A stretch of DNA of 64,000 nt. Origin: Prochlorococcus sp. scB243_498I20 (GTDB lineage Bacteria; Cyanobacteriota; Cyanobacteriia; PCC-6307; Cyanobiaceae). The position numbers and the translations under genes are program-made. The stretch covers positions 10,164 through 74,163 of the forward strand of contig JFMR01000114.1 of assembly GCA_000635015.1 (NCBI GenBank). The letters run 5' to 3'. This document shows, piece after piece, positions 41,198-64,000 of this stretch. A model generated the notes under the pieces. That model did no database searches, was not told where the DNA came from, and saw only the letters and a list, made by a program, of their open reading frames with translations. Every line of letters begins with the position of its first letter. The stretch's first letter is position 1.

Positions 41198-41286
41198 AAA
41201 TGAACACTTTTTTCTTTAATAAGAATAATTTATTTAAAACGAATAATATTTTTTTTAATTAAAGTTTAATTAAAAGTATATTCATA

Positions 41287-55140: not shown

Positions 55141-55184
55141 TACTAAATTGAATTGGAGATATCCTAAAGGATACAAACATGAAA

Positions 55185-55228
55185 AGCGGATGAAGAGATT
55201 CGAACTCTCGACATTCTCCTTGGCAAGG
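55185..55228 (-). repeat. 3' half of tRNA-Gly(GCC) (att junction)
   Basis: Reverse complement CCTTGCCAAGGAGAATGTCGAGAGTTCGAATCTCTTCATCCGCT; no D-arm or 5' acceptor strand upstream. Confidence 0.9.
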
Positions 55229-55546: not shown

Positions 55547-55888
55547 ATGCGTAAAAGAGCAACTAAACAAGAAATTGAATTAAGAGTTGCACATGCTGCT
55601 GAATTAGTTGCTGAAGGGCAGGCATATTCATCTATTACTTCCCATATTGCCGCAAAATATGGCATCTCAAGAAGAAGAGCCAGGCAGATCACTTCTAATG
55701 CTTATCTTTTGCTGAAAGATGATATTGAAAAAGGGGACTTAAATCGTCCTGAAATGACAGCAAAATTAGTATGTACTTTAGAAAATGCAATGTATAAAGC
55801 AATGCGAGAAAAACAATATTCTGCAGTTGCAAGTAATGCAAAAGTTCTTATGAAATTAATAGGGTTGGAAGCAAAAATAAAAAGTTAG
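55547..55888 (+). CDS. Mobile-element hypothetical protein with HTH (terminase small subunit-like, tentative)
   Basis: Predicted HTH (SHIAAKYGISRRRARQI) and C-terminal YKAM...A.VL.KLIGL helices; stop abuts tRNA-Pro fragment. Confidence 0.7.
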   Translation: MRKRATKQEIELRVAHAAELVAEGQAYSSITSHIAAKYGISRRRARQITSNAYLLLKDDIEKGDLNRPEMTAKLVCTLENAMYKAMREKQYSAVASNAKVLMKLIGLEAKIKS

Positions 55889-55889
55889 A

Positions 55890-55939
55890 GCGGGTGCTTT
55901 GGGAGCACTAGGTCGCAGGTTCGAATCCTGTCGCCCCGA
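55890..55939 (+). repeat. 3' two-thirds of tRNA-Pro(TGG) (att fragment)
   Basis: GCG-GGTGC-TTTGGGA-GCACT-AGGTC-GCAGG-TTCGAAT-CCTGT-CGCCCCGA; 5' acceptor/D-arm absent. Confidence 0.9.
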
Positions 55940-56056: not shown

Positions 56057-57184
56057 TTATTTATCCCATAGATGAATTGTCAAATCTTTGTTATGAGTCA
56101 ATTCATTAAATTTATCAATTTCAAGATTAGTGTTGTACATAATCATTGGCAATTCCATTTCATGTAATGAGCCATGGGCTCGATAACCTTCATCTAAGGT
56201 TTCATATTCTTCATCTGCTTCTCCAAACATAGTATTTTTATCACCTTCGACAACCAAATCCCCAATATGATGAATACTAGTTTTATATTTATCAGCAATA
56301 TACTTACTATCATAAACTTCATCAACTCCCTCAAGAGATTTTATGATATCTCTAACAGGCTCTTTATCTTCAGGATCCTTTAGCCATATCCAAGAGCACC
56401 CAGTATAGTTTTTGTGATGTTTTATATAGTAATCTCGCTCTGGAGACAATGCGAATAACAAAGGTATACCTCTGTTTTCACAGACTTTGGCTAAATTCCA
56501 ACATCTAGTTTTTTTGTTCATACTATGGTCAGCTGTTAGAAGAATGGCTGCATCTGGAGCACATTCAGTTATCTCTCCAAGTCTTGCATCCATTTTTTGA
56601 AGATGTAACTGTGAGCCTATTTCCTCAGGAGCCCATCTATGCATCGGATAATCAGTTATGTGCACATAAATTAAGTCGATAGATTTATCCTTTTTTAATA
56701 AATAAATTGCTGCATGCCAAAGCCAATCATTAACTTCAGAAGAATAAATATGAGCAGGTTCACCAATAGCTTCAACTAAATCTTTCGGTGGATTTTCTGC
56801 AGTTATTGCGATATCAGCAGAATCTCCAAAAAGCTCAGTTGATTTCTTTTTGGAGCTTAAAACTGCTACCTTTTTGTTACGCTTTTTTCCTTTAATAAAA
56901 ACCGAATCAACCTTTATTAGGTTTTTGTCATTCATGTACTCAGGAGTACCACTTTCGCGATTAAAATAAGAATTTGCAATGATTCCATGATCTTTAGGCC
57001 ATGAACCGGTTGCGATGCCTACATTATTTACGTTCGTGACACTTGGATAACATCCTGATACTTTTTTAAATAACCCTTCTTTAATTAATTTATTCTTTAT
57101 TACGGGTAAATTAGTTCCTTCAAGATATGTTAGACCAAAACCATCTAACATCCCAATGACACATCTTTGATTTTCAACTAGCAT
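56057..57184 (-). CDS. phnA: Phosphonoacetate hydrolase-like enzyme (alkaline phosphatase superfamily)
   Basis: MLDG, PSVTNVNN (Thr nucleophile; PhnA PSFTNPNN), TDYPMH, TADHSM, RAHGSLHE match PhnA ligand motifs; last gene of phn ABC operon. Confidence 0.7.
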   Translation of the reverse strand: MLVENQRCVIGMLDGFGLTYLEGTNLPVIKNKLIKEGLFKKVSGCYPSVTNVNNVGIATGSWPKDHGIIANSYFNRESGTPEYMNDKNLIKVDSVFIKGKKRNKKVAVLSSKKKSTELFGDSADIAITAENPPKDLVEAIGEPAHIYSSEVNDWLWHAAIYLLKKDKSIDLIYVHITDYPMHRWAPEEIGSQLHLQKMDARLGEITECAPDAAILLTADHSMNKKTRCWNLAKVCENRGIPLLFALSPERDYYIKHHKNYTGCSWIWLKDPEDKEPVRDIIKSLEGVDEVYDSKYIADKYKTSIHHIGDLVVEGDKNTMFGEADEEYETLDEGYRAHGSLHEMELPMIMYNTNLEIDKFNELTHNKDLTIHLWDK

Positions 57185-57248
57185 TTAAATTCTGTTTTTT
57201 TTAAGTTATTTTCCTTAGGTTAAATATCATTTAAGTAGAAATTAAGCT

Positions 57249-58049
57249 CTAATTATTAATATATTTGTTCCGAATATTCACACTTAATTGTTCAACAATA
57301 ATTACAAGTATAAAAATTAAAATTAATATTGTGGATGCTTGATCATAATTAAACATTTCCATTGCAACTTTTAATTCAATACCAATTCCTCCTGCTCCAA
57401 CTAATCCTAAAACTACAGATGAACGTACTGCTTTTTCAAGACTAAATAATGAAGTATTAATAAATGAAGGTAAGACTTCAGGGAGTACTGCACAAAAAAT
57501 TATTGCTATTTTTGAAATACCTATTGCCTCCAATGCTTTTTGAGGTTTTTTTTCAATCTCTTCCATGGCTTCTGCAAAGAAACGCCCAGAGAATCCAATA
57601 GTATCAACAATTATGGTGAGGGTCCCAGCTGAGGTACCAAGTCCAATAGTCGCAACAAAGAAAATTGCCCAGATAAGATCTGGAATCGTTCTTAAAAATG
57701 CAATTAAGCCTCTAGAAATTTTATACAATTTTGGAATTGGACTTAGTTCTTTAGCCGCAAATATTGCCAAAGAAAATCCTCCCAATATTCCTACAAATGT
57801 CCCTACAAATGCTATCTGTAAAGTCTCAAGAATCGATTTCAAAAGAGGGAAAATCCTTGAAAAATTTGGAGGTAGCATTTCACTAAGAAGACGAATCATA
57901 TATGGCACACCTTTTAAGAACTCAAGAGGTGATAAACCAACTTGCTTACTAGACCAAATGAAAAACAATAGAACTAAAAGGTATGAGAAATAAACTAAAT
58001 TATTTGTTTTATCCCATCTTGGAGGTAAATCTCTATAATTATTTTTCAT
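57249..58049 (-). CDS. phnE: Phosphonate ABC transporter permease
   Basis: ETLQIA..GT, RTIPDLIWAIFFV..IGLG, EKAVRSSVVLGLVGAGGIG. Confidence 0.93.
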   Translation of the reverse strand: MKNNYRDLPPRWDKTNNLVYFSYLLVLLFFIWSSKQVGLSPLEFLKGVPYMIRLLSEMLPPNFSRIFPLLKSILETLQIAFVGTFVGILGGFSLAIFAAKELSPIPKLYKISRGLIAFLRTIPDLIWAIFFVATIGLGTSAGTLTIIVDTIGFSGRFFAEAMEEIEKKPQKALEAIGISKIAIIFCAVLPEVLPSFINTSLFSLEKAVRSSVVLGLVGAGGIGIELKVAMEMFNYDQASTILILIFILVIIVEQLSVNIRNKYINN

Positions 58050-58051
58050 TT

Positions 58052-58831
58052 TTATGCAGCATAAAATTCATTAACATCAAGTTCATTAAGTTCTTTAGAT
58101 TTAATATTTATTTTGATTACTCCATCTTTCAAACCAATTACTCTATTTGCATAATGTTCAGCATGCTTTAAGTCGTGAGTTGTAAAAAATAGCGTAATTC
58201 CTTGCTTTAAAGTGAGATCTTTTAGAAGGTTCATAACTTCAATTCCAACCTTTGGATCTAGACTTGCGACAGGTTCATCAGCGATCATTAACTTGGGTTT
58301 TTGCATTAGAGCACGCGCTATTGCTACCCTTTGAGATTCCCCTCCAGAAAGTGTATTAACGTTATTCTTTGCAAAATTTTTTAATCCAACTTGATCTAAA
58401 CAATTCAGAGCCCTAGATCTAATTTCAGAGGGAGCAAATGCCTGATACCATAATCTAGGATTTGGGTGGGAATTTAAAGATCCATGAATAACATTACTTA
58501 AAACGCTCAACCTTGGTACTAAATTATGAGTCTGCCAAATAAAAGCAATATCTCGTCTATAAAACTTTAGTAAATTATTATTTTTCATATTCAAGCGTAT
58601 CTGATTAGTATAAATTTCTCCTTTTTCAATATTTGTTAAACCTAAAAGACATTTGATTAAAGTAGATTTTCCACTACCATTTGATCCAATTAGTGCAACT
58701 GATTCTCCATAACTTACATTTAAATTTATTTCTCTTAAAACTTTTTTATTTTTAAAAGATTTACTTAAATTTGTTACTTTTAATATTTCATGAGAATCTC
58801 TTAGAATAGATGATTTTGTAAACTTTTCCAT
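58052..58831 (-). CDS. phnC: Phosphonate ABC transporter ATP-binding protein
   Basis: GSNGSGKST, LSGGESQRVAIARAL, ADEPVASLDP, HNLVPRLSVLSNV. Confidence 0.93.
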   Translation of the reverse strand: MEKFTKSSILRDSHEILKVTNLSKSFKNKKVLREINLNVSYGESVALIGSNGSGKSTLIKCLLGLTNIEKGEIYTNQIRLNMKNNNLLKFYRRDIAFIWQTHNLVPRLSVLSNVIHGSLNSHPNPRLWYQAFAPSEIRSRALNCLDQVGLKNFAKNNVNTLSGGESQRVAIARALMQKPKLMIADEPVASLDPKVGIEVMNLLKDLTLKQGITLFFTTHDLKHAEHYANRVIGLKDGVIKINIKSKELNELDVNEFYAA

Positions 58832-58869: not shown

Positions 58870-59757
58870 CTACAAAAATTTATTAAATTTATTTACTCCA
58901 ATGGTTTTATACATTGATCGCACGTAATCATAATCGCTATCTTTTGTATTAGGTAAAAATTGCATTCCAGTAAATTTCTTATTATCTTCTCCAAGAAGTA
59001 TTGCACTTATCATTTCATCAGAATTCTTAGACAGAACACTTTTTATTTTATTCACGGATTTTTTATCTAAACCTTTTCTATAAAGCAAAATATCATTAGG
59101 CAAATCTCGACTTCTAGCAATAACTTTAAATGCACCTGGTTGATACTGTTTATCAATTGATCTTAATTTCAAAAACTTATCATTGGTTGTAGCAAATGCA
59201 GCGACATCTCCTCTTTTGAGTGCTTCCCAACCAACTTTAACGCTTGTATGAAAAGGCTTTATATCTCTTAAAGGATCTAGCCCTGCATCTTTCATAACTT
59301 GAAAAGGAGCCAAGTGCTTTGAGGTGGAGCCAACTGATCCCATTGCAACTTTTTTATTCTTAAGATCTTTTACATCTTGTATTGGACCATCAGCCATTAC
59401 GACAATAGAATTAAAATAATCTGGTCTTGAAAACCCTACGAGAGTTTGGGCATCTGTCTTATTTTTAAAAATTACGTATTCTGCAGGGCCTGTTAAAACT
59501 AAATCAATCTTTTTATTTCTCATAGCTTCAACTGCAGCTGTTCTATTCGGAACAGGGTAAAACTTAATATTCAATCCAGTTTTTTCAATCAATTTATCTC
59601 TGAAGGGACCAAACTCAGTTTGCAATTGTTCCATTCCTTCTAGGTCAGTAATTGCGAAATTAATAATTTCTTGTGCAATTGCAGAGACTGACATTGCTGA
59701 AGACGCTAGAATCCCTATAGCAAGGACTTTTGTTTTAGAAAAAAAACTCTTTAACAT
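58870..59757 (-). CDS. phnD: Phosphonate/phosphite-type ABC substrate-binding protein
   Basis: Signal peptide (AIA-QE), GPAEY, DLKNKKVAMGSVGSTS.H, LPND motifs. Confidence 0.88.
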   Translation of the reverse strand: MLKSFFSKTKVLAIGILASSAMSVSAIAQEIINFAITDLEGMEQLQTEFGPFRDKLIEKTGLNIKFYPVPNRTAAVEAMRNKKIDLVLTGPAEYVIFKNKTDAQTLVGFSRPDYFNSIVVMADGPIQDVKDLKNKKVAMGSVGSTSKHLAPFQVMKDAGLDPLRDIKPFHTSVKVGWEALKRGDVAAFATTNDKFLKLRSIDKQYQPGAFKVIARSRDLPNDILLYRKGLDKKSVNKIKSVLSKNSDEMISAILLGEDNKKFTGMQFLPNTKDSDYDYVRSMYKTIGVNKFNKFL

Positions 59758-59825
59758 TTTTTGAGTAGTTGATATCCAAAGAATAAAGAATATTCATCTT
59801 TTAAAGTTATGTTTTTTTTAGAGGG

Positions 59826-59855
59826 AATTTAAAAAAAGTTTAAGTTCAGATTAAT
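59826..59855 (-). promoter_or_regulatory. Putative Pho box (3 repeats) upstream of phnD
   Basis: Minus strand ATTAATCT-gaa-CTTAAACT-ttt-TTTAAATT: TTAA cores at exact 11-bp period. Confidence 0.55.
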
Positions 59856-59887
59856 TTTTAAAAATACAAAAACTTTTTTTTTCATTT

Positions 59888-59906
59888 CTTAATTACTTCT
59901 TAATTC
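59888..59906 (+). promoter_or_regulatory. Putative Pho box (2 repeats) upstream of phnZ
   Basis: CTTAATTA-ctt-CTTAATTC, 11-bp period, ~40 bp before GTG start. Confidence 0.5.
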
Positions 59907-59943
59907 AAATCAATTAATATCACTTCGTTTTTAATGATTTTAA

Positions 59944-60540
59944 GTGAAATACAAAACTATAAAAAATTTCAAAAACAAATTACAAGATTCTGATAACGAT
60001 GAATTTGCTGATTTATTATTTGATTTTATTAAGGAGGAAGGAAAAACTGCTTATGATGAATCTGTCTCTCAATTACAACATGCTCTCCAAACAGCATCAC
60101 TCGCTCGCACTGAAGATGGCAGAAGGCATATAGTAATTGCTTCTTTATTGCATGATATAGGTCATCTTTTTATTGAAGAGAATGACGCAAAAAAAATAAA
60201 AGATCTTAACCATGAAATTATTGCTTCAAATTTTTTAAAAGATTTTTTCTCTGAAAAAATCACGGAAAGTATCCGCTTACACGTTGTCGCAAAAAGATAT
60301 TTATGCTCAATCGATAATTCTTATTATGAGAGATTAGCTAAATCATCTAAAAAAAGCTTTGTGGTTCAAGGTGGAGCTTTAGAAAAAAAAGAGATTATTG
60401 AACTGGAAAATAATATCTACTTTAAAGACGCAATTCAATTAAGGAAATGGGACGATAGAGCCAAGGTTTCTCTAAAAGAAGTTGAAGAATTAGATACTTA
60501 TAAAGAAATGATTGTTGCCGAAAGATTTGCTAATTATTAA
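59944..60540 (+). CDS. phnZ: HD-domain phosphonate oxygenase PhnZ-like
   Basis: Y.E.VSQLQHALQ, LLHDIGH, HE, LHVVAKRYLC, S...QGG, LR.WDD.AK. Confidence 0.88.
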   Translation: MKYKTIKNFKNKLQDSDNDEFADLLFDFIKEEGKTAYDESVSQLQHALQTASLARTEDGRRHIVIASLLHDIGHLFIEENDAKKIKDLNHEIIASNFLKDFFSEKITESIRLHVVAKRYLCSIDNSYYERLAKSSKKSFVVQGGALEKKEIIELENNIYFKDAIQLRKWDDRAKVSLKEVEELDTYKEMIVAERFANY

Positions 60541-60854: not shown

Positions 60855-60876
60855 GGTGCAAGTAGCAAGCGTTTCA
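60855..60876 (-). repeat. Cassette site A copy 1
   Basis: + strand GGTGCAAGTAGCAAGCGTTTCA; TCA is the TGA stop of ORF 60874-61290. Confidence 0.85.
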
Positions 60877-61290
60877 TCTAGGAAGTATTCTATTTAATTC
60901 GGGATATTCAATTCTTAATTCTTCTATAAATGCATCAACGGTCTTTGATATCTCGTCAGTAGTATTCAAAATAGAATTTTTATATTTTAGATATTCGGAA
61001 ACTTGAAATAATTTCATAGTTGATTTTGTTAAAAGTAATGTTGCAAGAGGAGATTTATCTGCCAATTTAGTTGAAGGAAAATATTTTATAGTTTCAGGAT
61101 AAGTTTTTTCCATATCCTCAATATAGTCTTCTATCTTTTCATTTAATTCATCATATTTTGATGATAAAAACTTTTTGGTATTTAAATATTCAAAACCTGC
61201 GAATAAAAAACCAATAGGAAAACTTAAAAATAATATTGAAAGAGAAAGCCTAAGAAGATTTTGGGAAAATTTTTCCATAGAAATAATCAA
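60874..61290 (-). CDS. Hypothetical membrane-anchored protein (cassette ORF)
   Basis: One N-terminal TM helix, acidic helical domain. Confidence 0.7.
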   Translation of the reverse strand: MIISMEKFSQNLLRLSLSILFLSFPIGFLFAGFEYLNTKKFLSSKYDELNEKIEDYIEDMEKTYPETIKYFPSTKLADKSPLATLLLTKSTMKLFQVSEYLKYKNSILNTTDEISKTVDAFIEELRIEYPELNRILPR

Positions 61291-61394
61291 TTAAATTTAT
61301 TTAAAACATATCAAGGTTAAAAGTAAGTAAAGCATGTAATATTTTTGCTTTCTTCTTCCGATCTACTGAAATATTTAATTTTTATAATTTCTAT

Positions 61395-61408
61395 ATCGAC
61401 TGTCAATC
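61395..61408 (-). repeat. Cassette site B partial copy
   Basis: ATCGACTGTCAATC identical to part of 63048-63091. Confidence 0.75.
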
Positions 61409-61418
61409 GTATTTAATA

Positions 61419-61444
61419 TAGCGGTGCAATTAGTAAGCGTTTCA
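61419..61444 (-). repeat. Cassette site A copy 2
   Basis: + strand TAGCGGTGCAATTAGTAAGCGTTTCA; TCA is the TGA stop of ORF 61442-61837. Confidence 0.85.
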
Positions 61445-61837
61445 ATTTTTATTGTTAACTAATCCATAGATACATAAAAGAGGATTCACTATCAAAACAA
61501 TCCAGAAAGGAGGAGGGGGTCCTCCATCAACAATTGTCCCAGCGTTAAAAGTATTAAATAGAGCTACTGCCAAAAAACAAAACATCAAAGCTAATTCACC
61601 TGATAAAACTTTTCTTAAGGAGGCTTTATCTTTAATGGAACTACAAATAATCAATAAAAAACCTATTCCTAAATTACTAGCAGCTACAACATCTGCAGTA
61701 CCTCTAACAAGAAGCAATGTTTCACTTGAAGCGTTGCCTGCAATAGTTTCCACTGAAAAAATTAGTAGAGAAATAATTAACAACCCCAACAGGATATGAA
61801 GCGCTCCAGTAGTTTTTAAAATATTTTTTAACTTCAT
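61442..61837 (-). CDS. Hypothetical integral membrane protein, ~4 TM (cassette ORF)
   Basis: Four hydrophobic segments; GGPPPPFW motif. Confidence 0.8.
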   Translation of the reverse strand: MKLKNILKTTGALHILLGLLIISLLIFSVETIAGNASSETLLLVRGTADVVAASNLGIGFLLIICSSIKDKASLRKVLSGELALMFCFLAVALFNTFNAGTIVDGGPPPPFWIVLIVNPLLCIYGLVNNKN

Positions 61838-61882
61838 AAAAAAAGGAGCTTATTTCCCCCTTATTGTAGATCGACTGTCAAT
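61838..61882 (-). repeat. Cassette site B full copy
   Basis: AAAAAAAGGAGCTTATTTCCCCCTTATTGTAGATCGACTGTCAAT directly abutting the ATG. Confidence 0.88.
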
Positions 61883-61886
61883 TTAG

Positions 61887-61901
61887 AGTAGTAAGCGTTT
61901 C
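61887..61901 (-). repeat. Cassette site A copy 3 (truncated)
   Basis: AGTAGTAAGCGTTTC, 4 bp from site B. Confidence 0.8.
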
Positions 61902-62111
61902 GTTTAAAACAAAGTTCTAGTTTTTTCGTTTTTTTTCATTAACCTTCCACATTTTCTTGAACATATAATTTTTATGTTCATTGCAATACATTTAGCAGAA
62001 GTAATAATGCGTAAGTGTATATTAACTATACAGAATCCGTTCCAAAATTCTGTAGGTTTAAGGTCTTCCCTATCTTTCAACTCCTATTAATAGTTGAAAA
62101 TAAAAACCTAT

Positions 62112-62294
62112 TTACCACCACATACCGAGATTCAATTTTTTTGCATCTCTATTACATGCAAGCTCACACTCGTTTAACTCTTTGACTGAGAGAGCCTCAA
62201 GTATTCTTGCCATATCAATAGAAGATAGTTCTCCATTAACGTTCCACTTAAGTGTAGTTTTACGTTGAGGTGTGTTTTTTGTTTTTTTCATCAT
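62112..62294 (-). CDS. Small hypothetical protein
   Basis: 60-aa ORF, TLKWN..GELS.IDM.RIL...C.L.C pattern looks protein-like. Confidence 0.6.
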   Translation of the reverse strand: MMKKTKNTPQRKTTLKWNVNGELSSIDMARILEALSVKELNECELACNRDAKKLNLGMWW

Positions 62295-62442
62295 GACTTT
62301 TTAAGGTCGGGATAATTAAATAGCATGATTATTTAAAATTCTCAAATATTTATTGAGTAAAAGAGTATAAATTACCAAAAAAATGTGAAGTTTTTATAAG
62401 TTAAAGAATTAAATTTATTTATCAAGAATCTAGAAATTCAAT

Positions 62443-62468
62443 TAGCCGTGCAAGTAGTAAGCGTTTCA
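62443..62468 (-). repeat. Cassette site A copy 4
   Basis: TAGCCGTGCAAGTAGTAAGCGTTTCA immediately after the TAA at 62469-62471. Confidence 0.85.
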
Positions 62469-63047
62469 TTAAGGAAGATACTTATTCCTATTTATTGGTT
62501 CATTTTGGAGGATTCTCATGGCTTCTGGTGAGTTAGTAACTCCTATTATTGCGACCAAAATAACACCTAGTGCTAACAAGGCATATGCTCTCTGTTTATT
62601 TGCTTTTACCTTTCTAATACTTTCTTCTTCATAAACTTTCTTAAAATGAGCTTCCCATTTTTCAACAAAAGTAGGTTCAACTAACTTTTCATCAATTTCT
62701 TTATTTTTTGCCTCCGCTTCGCCATTAAATTTATTTTTAAATTCTGGGAAATCATTATGGCTTAAAGCCCATTATTTCCACGATGTCCATTCTTGTAATT
62801 GTGTTTGTTTTGCTTGACCTTGAATTAAAAAAGCGTCTCCGCCAACATCAGCACCTGCCATACCCGTAATTGCTCCAGCTATGGCTCCATCACGCCTGCT
62901 TGTATTTTTAGGAGGCCTTGCTTCTACATCATGTAATTTTAAAAATTCAACAACTATTACATCTAAACCAACTAAGGGAACTTTTTTTAATTCAGGATTA
63001 TCTCTGTAAATTCTGGTTAATTCAGATTGTTTCCATTCTTTAGTCAT
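62469..63047 (-). pseudogene. Hypothetical protein with in-frame premature stop (cassette ORF)
   Basis: Frame reads ...EWTSWK-TAA(62772-62774)-WALSHNDFPEF... and stays open for 100 more codons incl. a TM helix to TAA 62469. Confidence 0.75.
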
Positions 63048-63096: not shown

Positions 63097-64000
63097 TTAG
63101 ACACCTACTTCAAAGGCATTTTTTTGATGTCTAGCAACAGCAGCTTCGATAGATGCTTCACTAGTCCAACGGCCGTAAAAATTTAAATGTGTTGCGGGTG
63201 TATGACCCATTGCTTCGGCGGCATCTCGAATTGAGATTGGATTATCACTAGCTTTGTGAGCTATCCAAGCCCATCTATGACGAAGGGAATATGGCGTTAA
63301 TCCTTTAGTCTTTTTAGCTATCTGTTTCCAAATAATTGTTCTATTTAATTGTTGGGTTAATGTTGCACCAACATCAGCAAATCTTCTCTTTTTCTGAACC
63401 ATCTTAATTTGATTTTCGATCGCTTCTGGAAGTCCAACTAAACCGCTTTTATATTGTGCTACAAGCTCATTTCCTAGCCCTTCTCTGCCCAATATATCTA
63501 GTGCAAATACTCTACGAGGTGGATTCTTTTTGCCCTTATTCTGGACGTTTTTCTTGATACTTCCGACAAATAATTTATTACCATCTCTTACTTCAAGAGT
63601 GGCTAATTCTGAAAGTCTTAATCCATGCAATGCGATCAATCCGACCGCTAAATATAACTTAGGATTTGTCGCTTTTAGTGTGTCTAATAATATTGCTAAA
63701 TCAGCGTCAGATATTGGTGGAGTTACTGTATCTTCTGTAGTTCTAGTATTATCTCCGACCAGTTCTTTAGCTAAGTCTTTATGGGGTGGAAACCATCTTT
63801 CACTCATACCGTGGCGGTTGACTCCATATTCAAGAATTTTATAAACGGAATCTAAATATCTTTTTCTAGAATCTGAACCCGATGGAATATCATCAAAGAA
63901 ATTTTTAGCGTATTTTTTGACAAAATCTTCTCCCGAAGTTGGTGTAGGTTTTTTATTCATTACTTCTCTAAATCGATCAACTCTTCTAGTCCACTCCATA
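63097..64000 (-). CDS. Tyrosine recombinase/integrase (5' end outside window)
   Basis: HGLRLSEL (Arg), PYSLRH, AMGH, FY catalytic tyrosine near C-terminus. Confidence 0.92.
   Translation of the reverse strand, partial: MEWTRRVDRFREVMNKKPTPTSGEDFVKKYAKNFFDDIPSGSDSRKRYLDSVYKILEYGVNRHGMSERWFPPHKDLAKELVGDNTRTTEDTVTPPISDADLAILLDTLKATNPKLYLAVGLIALHGLRLSELATLEVRDGNKLFVGSIKKNVQNKGKKNPPRRVFALDILGREGLGNELVAQYKSGLVGLPEAIENQIKMVQKKRRFADVGATLTQQLNRTIIWKQIAKKTKGLTPYSLRHRWAWIAHKASDNPISIRDAAEAMGHTPATHLNFYGRWTSEASIEAAVARHQKNAFEVGV

Follow-up and report, generated by a model that had tools for sequence, protein, structure and literature searches.

A PhnA-like hydrolase gene behind a phosphonate-type importer on a tRNA-Gly island in wild Prochlorococcus

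Phosphonates account for a substantial part of the organic phosphorus dissolved in the sea, and no phototroph is more abundant than Prochlorococcus in the phosphorus-poor gyres. Here, we describe a gene for a short PhnA-like hydrolase in a 64,000-nucleotide stretch from the genome of Prochlorococcus sp. scB243_498I20 (GCA_000635015.1, contig JFMR01000114.1, positions 10,164 to 74,163 of the forward strand; hereafter the window), which is AT-rich with a GC content of about 0.32. Four genes with the same orientation, separated by gaps of 38, 2 and 64 base pairs (bp), encode in order a binding protein, PhnC, PhnE and, last, the hydrolase. The features of this region are as follows.

55184-55228, minus strand: 3' fragment of tRNA-Gly(GCC) marking the distal end of the island; its 45 bp recur exactly, in direct orientation, within the intact tRNA-Gly
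56057-57184, minus strand: short PhnA-like hydrolase (P0001), 375 amino acids (aa), identified by motifs, hidden Markov model (HMM) scores and fold
57249-58049, minus strand: PhnE-type ATP-binding cassette (ABC) permease, TIGR01097 269 bits, passing the cut-off of 216.7; 64 bp from the hydrolase gene
58052-58831, minus strand: PhnC-type ABC ATPase, TIGR02315 251.7 bits, slightly below the cut-off of 266.1; 2 bp from phnE
58870-59757, minus strand: PhnD/PtxB-family periplasmic binding protein with N-terminal signal sequence, PF12974 126 bits, TIGR01098 110 bits against a cut-off of 112
59758-59943, no strand: divergent intergenic region of 186 bp with two Pho-box-like 8-mers at 11-bp spacing (CTTAATTA ctt CTTAATTC, 59888-59906)
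59944-60540, plus strand: PhnZ-like HD-domain oxygenase, TIGR03276 187 bits against a cut-off of 214.6; TmpB and PhnZ in the PDB matched at E about 1e-23
63097-64000, continuing to about 64434, minus strand: divergent tyrosine recombinase, 445 aa in full, PF00589 at only E 1e-4, below the gathering score

The reading frame at 56057-57184 is intact, with an ATG start, 375 codons and no internal stop. A preliminary description of this DNA had read the gene as a divergent phosphonoacetate hydrolase-like enzyme, and each motif quoted there was found in the translation: MLDGFG (with D14-G15), PSVTNVNN (residues 47-54), TDYPMH (177-182), TADHSM (217-222) and RAHGSLHE (335-342). The canonical forms with which these had been compared, PSFTNPNN, TDYVQH and RSHGG, are indeed those of the solved PhnA structures and of representatives that pass the TIGR02335 model (P0215 and P0231). 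No signal peptide was detected in the hydrolase, which is therefore assigned to the cytoplasm and, for the same reason, to work on an imported compound.

Profile scoring, one of the checks proposed in the preliminary description, gave 87.4 bits for Pfam PF01663 (type I phosphodiesterase/NPP), well over the gathering threshold of 23; this establishes membership at the superfamily level only. The only meaningful match in NCBIfam was TIGR02335 (phosphonoacetate hydrolase), with 145.3 bits and an E-value of 2.7e-42. Solved PhnA structures were the best sequence matches in the PDB (3szy, 4.7e-31; 1ei6, 6.8e-31) and aligned over residues 23-352, whereas NPP/ENPP-type entries reached only E 1e-5, confined to the N-terminal 80 residues. 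Judged from these matches, the likeness of the hydrolase to PhnA is not due to chance.

Structure prediction, likewise proposed earlier, gave the same picture. An AlphaFold model computed with a 38-sequence alignment as input reached a pLDDT (predicted local distance difference test) of 95.2 and a pTM (predicted template-modelling score) of 0.93, and shows the overall fold of PhnA, including the cap domain. In a Foldseek search, all top PDB matches were PhnA chains (1ei6, 3t02/3szy; template-modelling score, TM, 0.85-0.87; E down to 5e-34), compared with TM 0.64-0.71 and E 5e-19 or weaker for NPPs. Clustering with generic nucleotide pyrophosphatases had been named as the outcome that would speak against a PhnA-like enzyme; on the bioinformatic side, with sequence E-values and a fold match of TM 0.87 to PhnA versus at most 0.71 to NPPs, it was not observed. 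A generic NPP identity was rejected because sequence and fold are both far closer to PhnA.

In S. meliloti PhnA, one metal is bound by Asp29, Thr68, Asp250 and His251, and the other, which takes the substrate carboxylate, by Asp211, His215 and His377 (PMC7916636). A lysine pair stabilises the aci-carboxylate leaving group and distinguishes PhnA chemistry from the ester hydrolysis of the superfamily (PMC10574752). Taking residue roles from these two reviews and counting equivalences through HMMER alignments to solved PhnA, we found the metal and nucleophile set of the hydrolase to be complete by alignment: T50 as the nucleophile, D14, D219 and H220 at one metal, and D178, H182 and H337 at the other. 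In addition, K112 and K114 ('SSKKK'), which were not in the motif list of the preliminary description, align with Lys126 and Lys128 of P. fluorescens PhnA ('TAKDK'). Metal ligands, nucleophile and lysine pair are invariant in the 38-sequence clade alignment, in which mean column identity is 66%, and the metal ligands and nucleophile do not vary among the 21 canonical PhnA representatives either. When the wider family was aligned (76 sequences), the lysine pair was present in all 10 clade members and all 21 canonical representatives, and its two residues in 41 and 38, respectively, of the 45 other PhnA-like representatives. The hydrolase is a two-metal, cytoplasmic member of the PhnA side of the alkaline-phosphatase superfamily.

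An exhaustive homologue search over 1.84 billion representatives returned only 895 relatives, which form two groups. Members of the diverse 'short' group (360-380 aa) carry PSVTNVNN and R-x-HGS and score 155-217 bits with TIGR02335, and those of the canonical group (400-425 aa) carry PSFTNPNN and RSHGG; three of four canonical representatives scored lie over the TIGR02335 cut-off (416-462 bits), the fourth, shorter one (384 aa) reaching 333 bits. Several positions are fixed within each group yet different between them (hydrolase/canonical: V52/P, C59/T, N152/S, S339/G), and the most striking difference is a loop with S247-E249-R250-Y252 in the short clade versus L-I-T-P in canonical PhnA. Because these signature residues are nearly invariant across the subfamily, the substitutions pointed out in the preliminary description are a subfamily signature and not the drift of a single gene. 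Its label is therefore right in naming a PhnA-like enzyme, whose catalytic set is complete, but not in implying a one-off, since the protein is an ordinary member of a large, conserved sister subfamily. The signature substitutions may or may not reflect a change in specificity; an altered substrate specificity, as had been suggested, would be plausible. Public annotation of the subfamily is inconsistent, its members being called either 'phosphonoacetate hydrolase' or 'alkaline phosphatase family protein'.

Among species genomes of GTDB, 326 related loci were found, of which the best 80 were analysed; 66 of these had at least 4 kb of upstream sequence. An importer lies directly upstream of the short gene in 40 of the 66, being PhnD-type in 22 and Pst-like, with PstS below its cut-off, in 18. 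In the remaining 26, neither importer was found within the detection reach of the reference proteins used. The Pst-like loci (L041 2357-8113, L067 3448-8161, L077 2298-8104 and 15 more; PstS 134-174 bits versus a cut-off of 206.6) encode PstC, PstA and a PstB-like ATPase; downstream, one or two genes for short PhnA-like proteins take the usual place of phoU, and a DeoR/SorC-type regulator lies upstream in the Methylophaga locus; the Pst-like importer ahead of these genes may carry something other than phosphate. A LysR regulator is present in 8 of the 22 PhnD-type loci, a layout of LysR, transporter and hydrolase that echoes the phnR-phnA-transporter region of P. fluorescens 23F. Five of the 22 contain a neighbouring S-adenosylmethionine (SAM) methyltransferase. 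This class I enzyme of about 220 aa adjoins the hydrolase (L001 7241-7978, L003 7296-7967, L005 9124-9780, L006 9096-9749) in Verrucomicrobia, Spirochaetes and others, and has invariant K-x-HPH-x-Y and HWH motifs. Methylation of arsenic or selenium and O-methylation of phosphonates were considered for it and rejected, as it has no conserved Cys pair, no DhpI match and generic class I matches only; being absent in Prochlorococcus, it is not essential.

A second short PhnA-like paralogue stands in tandem in 21 of the 66 loci. Counted by genome, 21 of 40 carriers have such a pair, and the partner is consistently nearer to PhnA (about 180-220 bits versus 140-175). In the same 40 carrier genomes, searched whole, neither a canonical PhnA nor a PhnY dehydrogenase over cut-off was found. 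By comparison, phnW and phnY both occur in 71 of 89 canonical phnA operons (PMC3266647), whereas genes of the short subfamily were never seen with phnW-phnY. Importer linkage, together with the absence of PhnY and canonical PhnA from the carriers, therefore shows the subfamily to work, coupled to a transporter, on a phosphorus compound taken up from outside and not at the final step of 2-aminoethylphosphonate breakdown. The Prochlorococcus genome conforms to this: its best matches to the PhnW and PhnY dehydrogenase models, 131.6 bits (cut-off 400.8) and 108.9 bits (cut-off 635.65), are below cut-off genome-wide. As the preliminary description had argued from the lack of these two genes, direct import of the substrate, here through the PhnD-C-E importer ahead of the hydrolase, is the natural reading.

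On balance we lean, if not strongly, to a cytoplasmic carbon-phosphorus (C-P) hydrolase acting on an imported phosphonocarboxylate; what we infer in this proposal is C-P cleavage as the reaction, the nature of the substrate and control by phosphate. The binding protein would take up a small phosphonate in the periplasm and PhnC and PhnE would import it. At the two-metal centre, Thr50 would attack the phosphorus, Lys112 and Lys114 would stabilise the carboxylate-bearing carbanion leaving group as in PhnA, and hydrolysis of the phospho-threonine intermediate would release phosphate for the phosphorus-starved cell. Phosphonoacetate would be the default candidate substrate, with a related phosphonocarboxylate about equally possible. 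As to regulation, the Pho-box-like pair at 59888-59906 is at most suggestive of a phosphate-control signal, the pair pattern having three matches in the window where 0.28 are expected. The same scan also picked up a palindromic pair of Pho-box-like octamers on both strands at 41254-41274 (TTTAATTAAAGTTTAATT), and a promoter and terminator scan gave nothing over the shuffled background.

Several observations weigh against this proposal. The hydrolase falls short of the TIGR02335 equivalog cut-off of 407.55 bits by a wide margin, and in a quick, unrooted maximum-likelihood tree (IQ-TREE) of 76 full-length representatives, canonical PhnA forms one well-supported clade with the hydrolase clade elsewhere, the separating branch having 99% support in the SH-like approximate likelihood ratio test (SH-aLRT). 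HMM score and tree position led us to reject a canonical PhnA equivalog. The S247/E249/R250/Y252 loop could reshape the substrate pocket, and in genomes with a tandem pair the copy orthologous to this hydrolase may be the one with the non-phosphonoacetate role. The lysine pair is kept across the entire branch of the superfamily, so that its role might be more general. Moreover, many relatives stand behind Pst-like and not phosphonate-type importers, the Pho-box match is weak, and the short subfamily is uncharacterised.

Two more specific readings of the subfamily are each possible, if clearly less probable than the broad proposal. The first, a narrower case of it, is an isofunctional phosphonoacetate hydrolase, with the cassette as an import-and-cleave module like the phnA region of P. 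fluorescens 23F. It is in line with the retention of all catalytic and leaving-group residues, with PhnA as the best structural match, with the similar operon layout in P. fluorescens and with the lack of a canonical PhnA in all 40 carriers searched, as expected if one enzyme replaces the other. Yet the equivalog cut-off is clearly failed, the tandem paralogues of many genomes argue for two specificities, the loop is polar where PhnA has hydrophobic residues, many relatives pair with Pst-like importers, and characterised PhnA is very substrate-specific, so that changes in the pocket are likely to matter. The second reading, which we hold just as tentatively, credits the subfamily with a hydrolase specificity of a new kind, for a C-P or another P-X bond, directed at a different imported phosphonate and not at phosphonoacetate. 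Its substrate may be phosphonoformate, phosphonoalanine or a hydroxy- or amino-substituted phosphonocarboxylate, or the tandem paralogues may have two substrates, and the Ser247/Glu249/Arg250/Tyr252 loop may be what recognises it.

A P-O hydrolase of NPP type, be it a phosphodiesterase, phosphomonoesterase or phosphonate-monoester hydrolase that releases phosphate or phosphonate from an imported organophosphorus ester, is somewhat less probable still. PF01663 membership agrees with it, as does the promiscuity for which enzymes of the alkaline-phosphatase superfamily are known; the Pst-like importers of 18 of the 66 loci would fit general phosphorus scavenging, and tandem paralogues could carry out a diester and then a monoester step. 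Against this stand the NPP likeness, which is far below that to PhnA in sequence and fold, the invariance of the lysine pair by which the chemistry of PhnA differs from that of ester hydrolases, and the PhnD-type binding proteins, which are known for phosphonates, phosphite and hypophosphite and not for esters. Still far less probable is the cleavage of another P-X bond in a reduced or unusual phosphorus oxyanion, for example the P-H bond of phosphite, delivered by a PtxB/HtxB-like binding protein. E. coli alkaline phosphatase hydrolyses phosphite P-H bonds as a side activity, the binding protein of the cassette resembles PtxB and HtxB about as much as PhnD (about 25% identity to the solved structures of all three), anaerobes, Desulfobacterota among them, are over-represented among carriers of the subfamily, and some relatives have sub-threshold PstS-like binding proteins. 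Such a reaction would, however, leave the carboxylate-handling lysines without a role and would duplicate a ptxD-type phosphite route already in this genome.

The module sits between two copies of a tRNA-Gly sequence. The intact tRNA-Gly(GCC) lies just past the window end (window-equivalent 64513-64584) and contains the same 45-bp repeat as the fragment at 55184-55228, and the recombinase gene adjoins it. The repeat and the recombinase at the intact tRNA together identify the phosphonate module as cargo of an integrative element of about 9.4 kb at tRNA-Gly. Small open reading frames (ORFs) at 60874-63047 had no family match. A further tRNA 3'-half-like sequence (T-arm and acceptor, GGTCGCAGGTTCGAATCCTGTCGCCCCGA) is present at 55890-55939, about 120 bp beyond the hydrolase stop and just downstream of a 113-aa ORF (55547-55888); this would mean that integrations, nested or one after another, had taken place within the tRNA-Gly island.

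Cassettes of Verrucomicrobia, Desulfobacterota and Spirochaetes are similar in all four proteins (binding protein 57-61% identity, permease 58-61%, ATPase 47-49%, hydrolase 54-56%), and these parallel identities indicate that the block was inherited as a unit. To the PtxB-like protein of its own genome, by comparison, the binding protein is only 26% identical. A recent high-GC donor was not supported, with a GC content of 0.30-0.34 in the cassette versus 0.325 in the window and the nearest outside relatives only 54-57% identical. The PhnZ-like gene has another history. It is divergent from the operon, has no adjoining PhnY* and encodes a protein with 85% identity to PhnZ of the phnY*-phnZ cluster on another contig of the same genome (C45). 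Given this identity and the absence of phnZ beside the cassette in other phyla, it was rejected as an ancestral cassette gene and was instead recruited within Prochlorococcus. The four-gene unit would accordingly have been gained as a block and now reside on the island together with a locally recruited oxygenase.

The hydrolase gene is rare in Prochlorococcus and was acquired horizontally. A search for relatives covered 36 further species-level genomes of the genus and found it in none of them, and a scan of the GTDB species genomes revealed it in only one other Prochlorococcus, AG-915-K06 (94% identity), which has the same five-gene module; the module also occurs on one metagenome contig, and public assemblies hold about 146 near-identical hydrolase sequences. 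Comparison of the two Prochlorococcus single-cell genomes showed differences in 69 of 375 codons, 45 synonymous and 24 non-synonymous, with the invariant residues untouched. The resulting ratio of non-synonymous to synonymous substitution rates (dN/dS) is about 0.16, a rough value from two alleles, and the gene is under purifying selection. The three transporter genes of the same genomes differ in only 6-10 codons each, about 2% versus 18% for the hydrolase (56057-58049 compared with L014 2483-4478). Because of this disparity, a homologous-recombination breakpoint must lie near the phnE-hydrolase junction. One public allele, P0004 (22 member sequences), is 364 aa long and lacks 11 residues after position 241, among them the invariant F244, S247, P248 and D251; it may have lost activity or be an artefact of assembly. 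This allele and the occurrence in only two Prochlorococcus species genomes would suit decaying mobile-element cargo with no current function, an idea to which we give hardly any credence in view of the intact frame, the preserved invariant residues, the low dN/dS, the confident model and the recurrence of the module in metagenomes.

Contig C45 contains two further phosphorus loci. One, at L012 14225-19993, is an MIT9301-type second phosphorus-redox cluster with a PtxB-like binding protein, PhnE/PtxC, a PtxD-like dehydrogenase, a PhnY*-like hydroxylase (NF052437, 220 bits) and PhnZ (NF052439, 213 bits), and is adjoined by an ACR3 arsenite exporter. The other, a third phosphonate locus at L012 2725-9486, encodes a 2-aminoethylphosphonate-type ABC ATPase (TIGR03265, 473 bits), an HpnW-like flavin-dependent (FAD) oxidoreductase (TIGR03364, 420 bits), a TIGR01548 HAD hydrolase and a PhnZ/TmpB-like HD oxygenase that is broken by a TAA stop; it may be a decaying oxidative aminophosphonate route.

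No report of a PhnA-type hydrolytic route was found in the searchable literature for Prochlorococcus, where the known routes are PhnY*/PhnZ and Ptx. The cassette would place such a route on a mobile island that circulates among wild, Atlantic-type high-light cells, as a third, mobile phosphonate module within one wild Prochlorococcus cell. One characterised member of the subfamily would calibrate the annotation of many others (326 loci in GTDB species genomes) as well as metagenomic 'phnA' counts. If the new specificity is true, the island would open a phosphonate pool beyond the reach of PhnY*/PhnZ and Ptx in Prochlorococcus, and hundreds of 'phosphonoacetate hydrolase' annotations in anaerobes would be wrong. 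It may well be that the enzyme catalyses nothing other than ordinary PhnA chemistry.

Compared with known systems, the hydrolase is closest to PhnA (P. fluorescens 23F, 1EI6; S. meliloti 1021, 3SZY/3T02; TIGR02335), with which it has in common the fold with its cap, the two-metal site, the Thr nucleophile, the Lys-x-Lys pair and the HH motif. It is, however, only 24-30% identical to PhnA, 30-45 residues shorter and in a separate clade, and its motifs differ (PSVTNVNN for PSFTNPNN, TDYPMH for TDYVQH, LSPERDYY for LPITDPY, RAHGS for RSHGG). Like the P. fluorescens PhnA gene, it adjoins a transporter and has neither phnW nor phnY beside it. With NPPs (Xac NPP, ENPP1-7; PF01663) it shares superfamily, Pfam family, Thr nucleophile and metal ligands, but the likeness is much weaker (E 1e-5, TM 0.64-0.71), and NPPs do not have the PhnA lysine pair to deal with the leaving group; they are secreted or ecto-enzymes that act on P-O bond substrates. 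The island resembles the tycheposons of Prochlorococcus in its place at a tRNA 3' end, its 45-bp direct repeat, the recombinase beside the intact tRNA, its size of about 9 kb and its nutrient-acquisition cargo. Its recombinase is only a weak Pfam match, and the likeness was judged by insertion site, repeat, recombinase, size and cargo. Finally, the module and the ptxABCD-phnY*-phnZ cluster of MIT9301 type are both phosphorus-scavenging cargo of the flexible genome in high-light Prochlorococcus with a PhnD-family importer. The two importers, however, are only 26-35% identical, and the island has no PtxD or PhnY*, its C-P partner being a hydrolase rather than an oxygenase pair.

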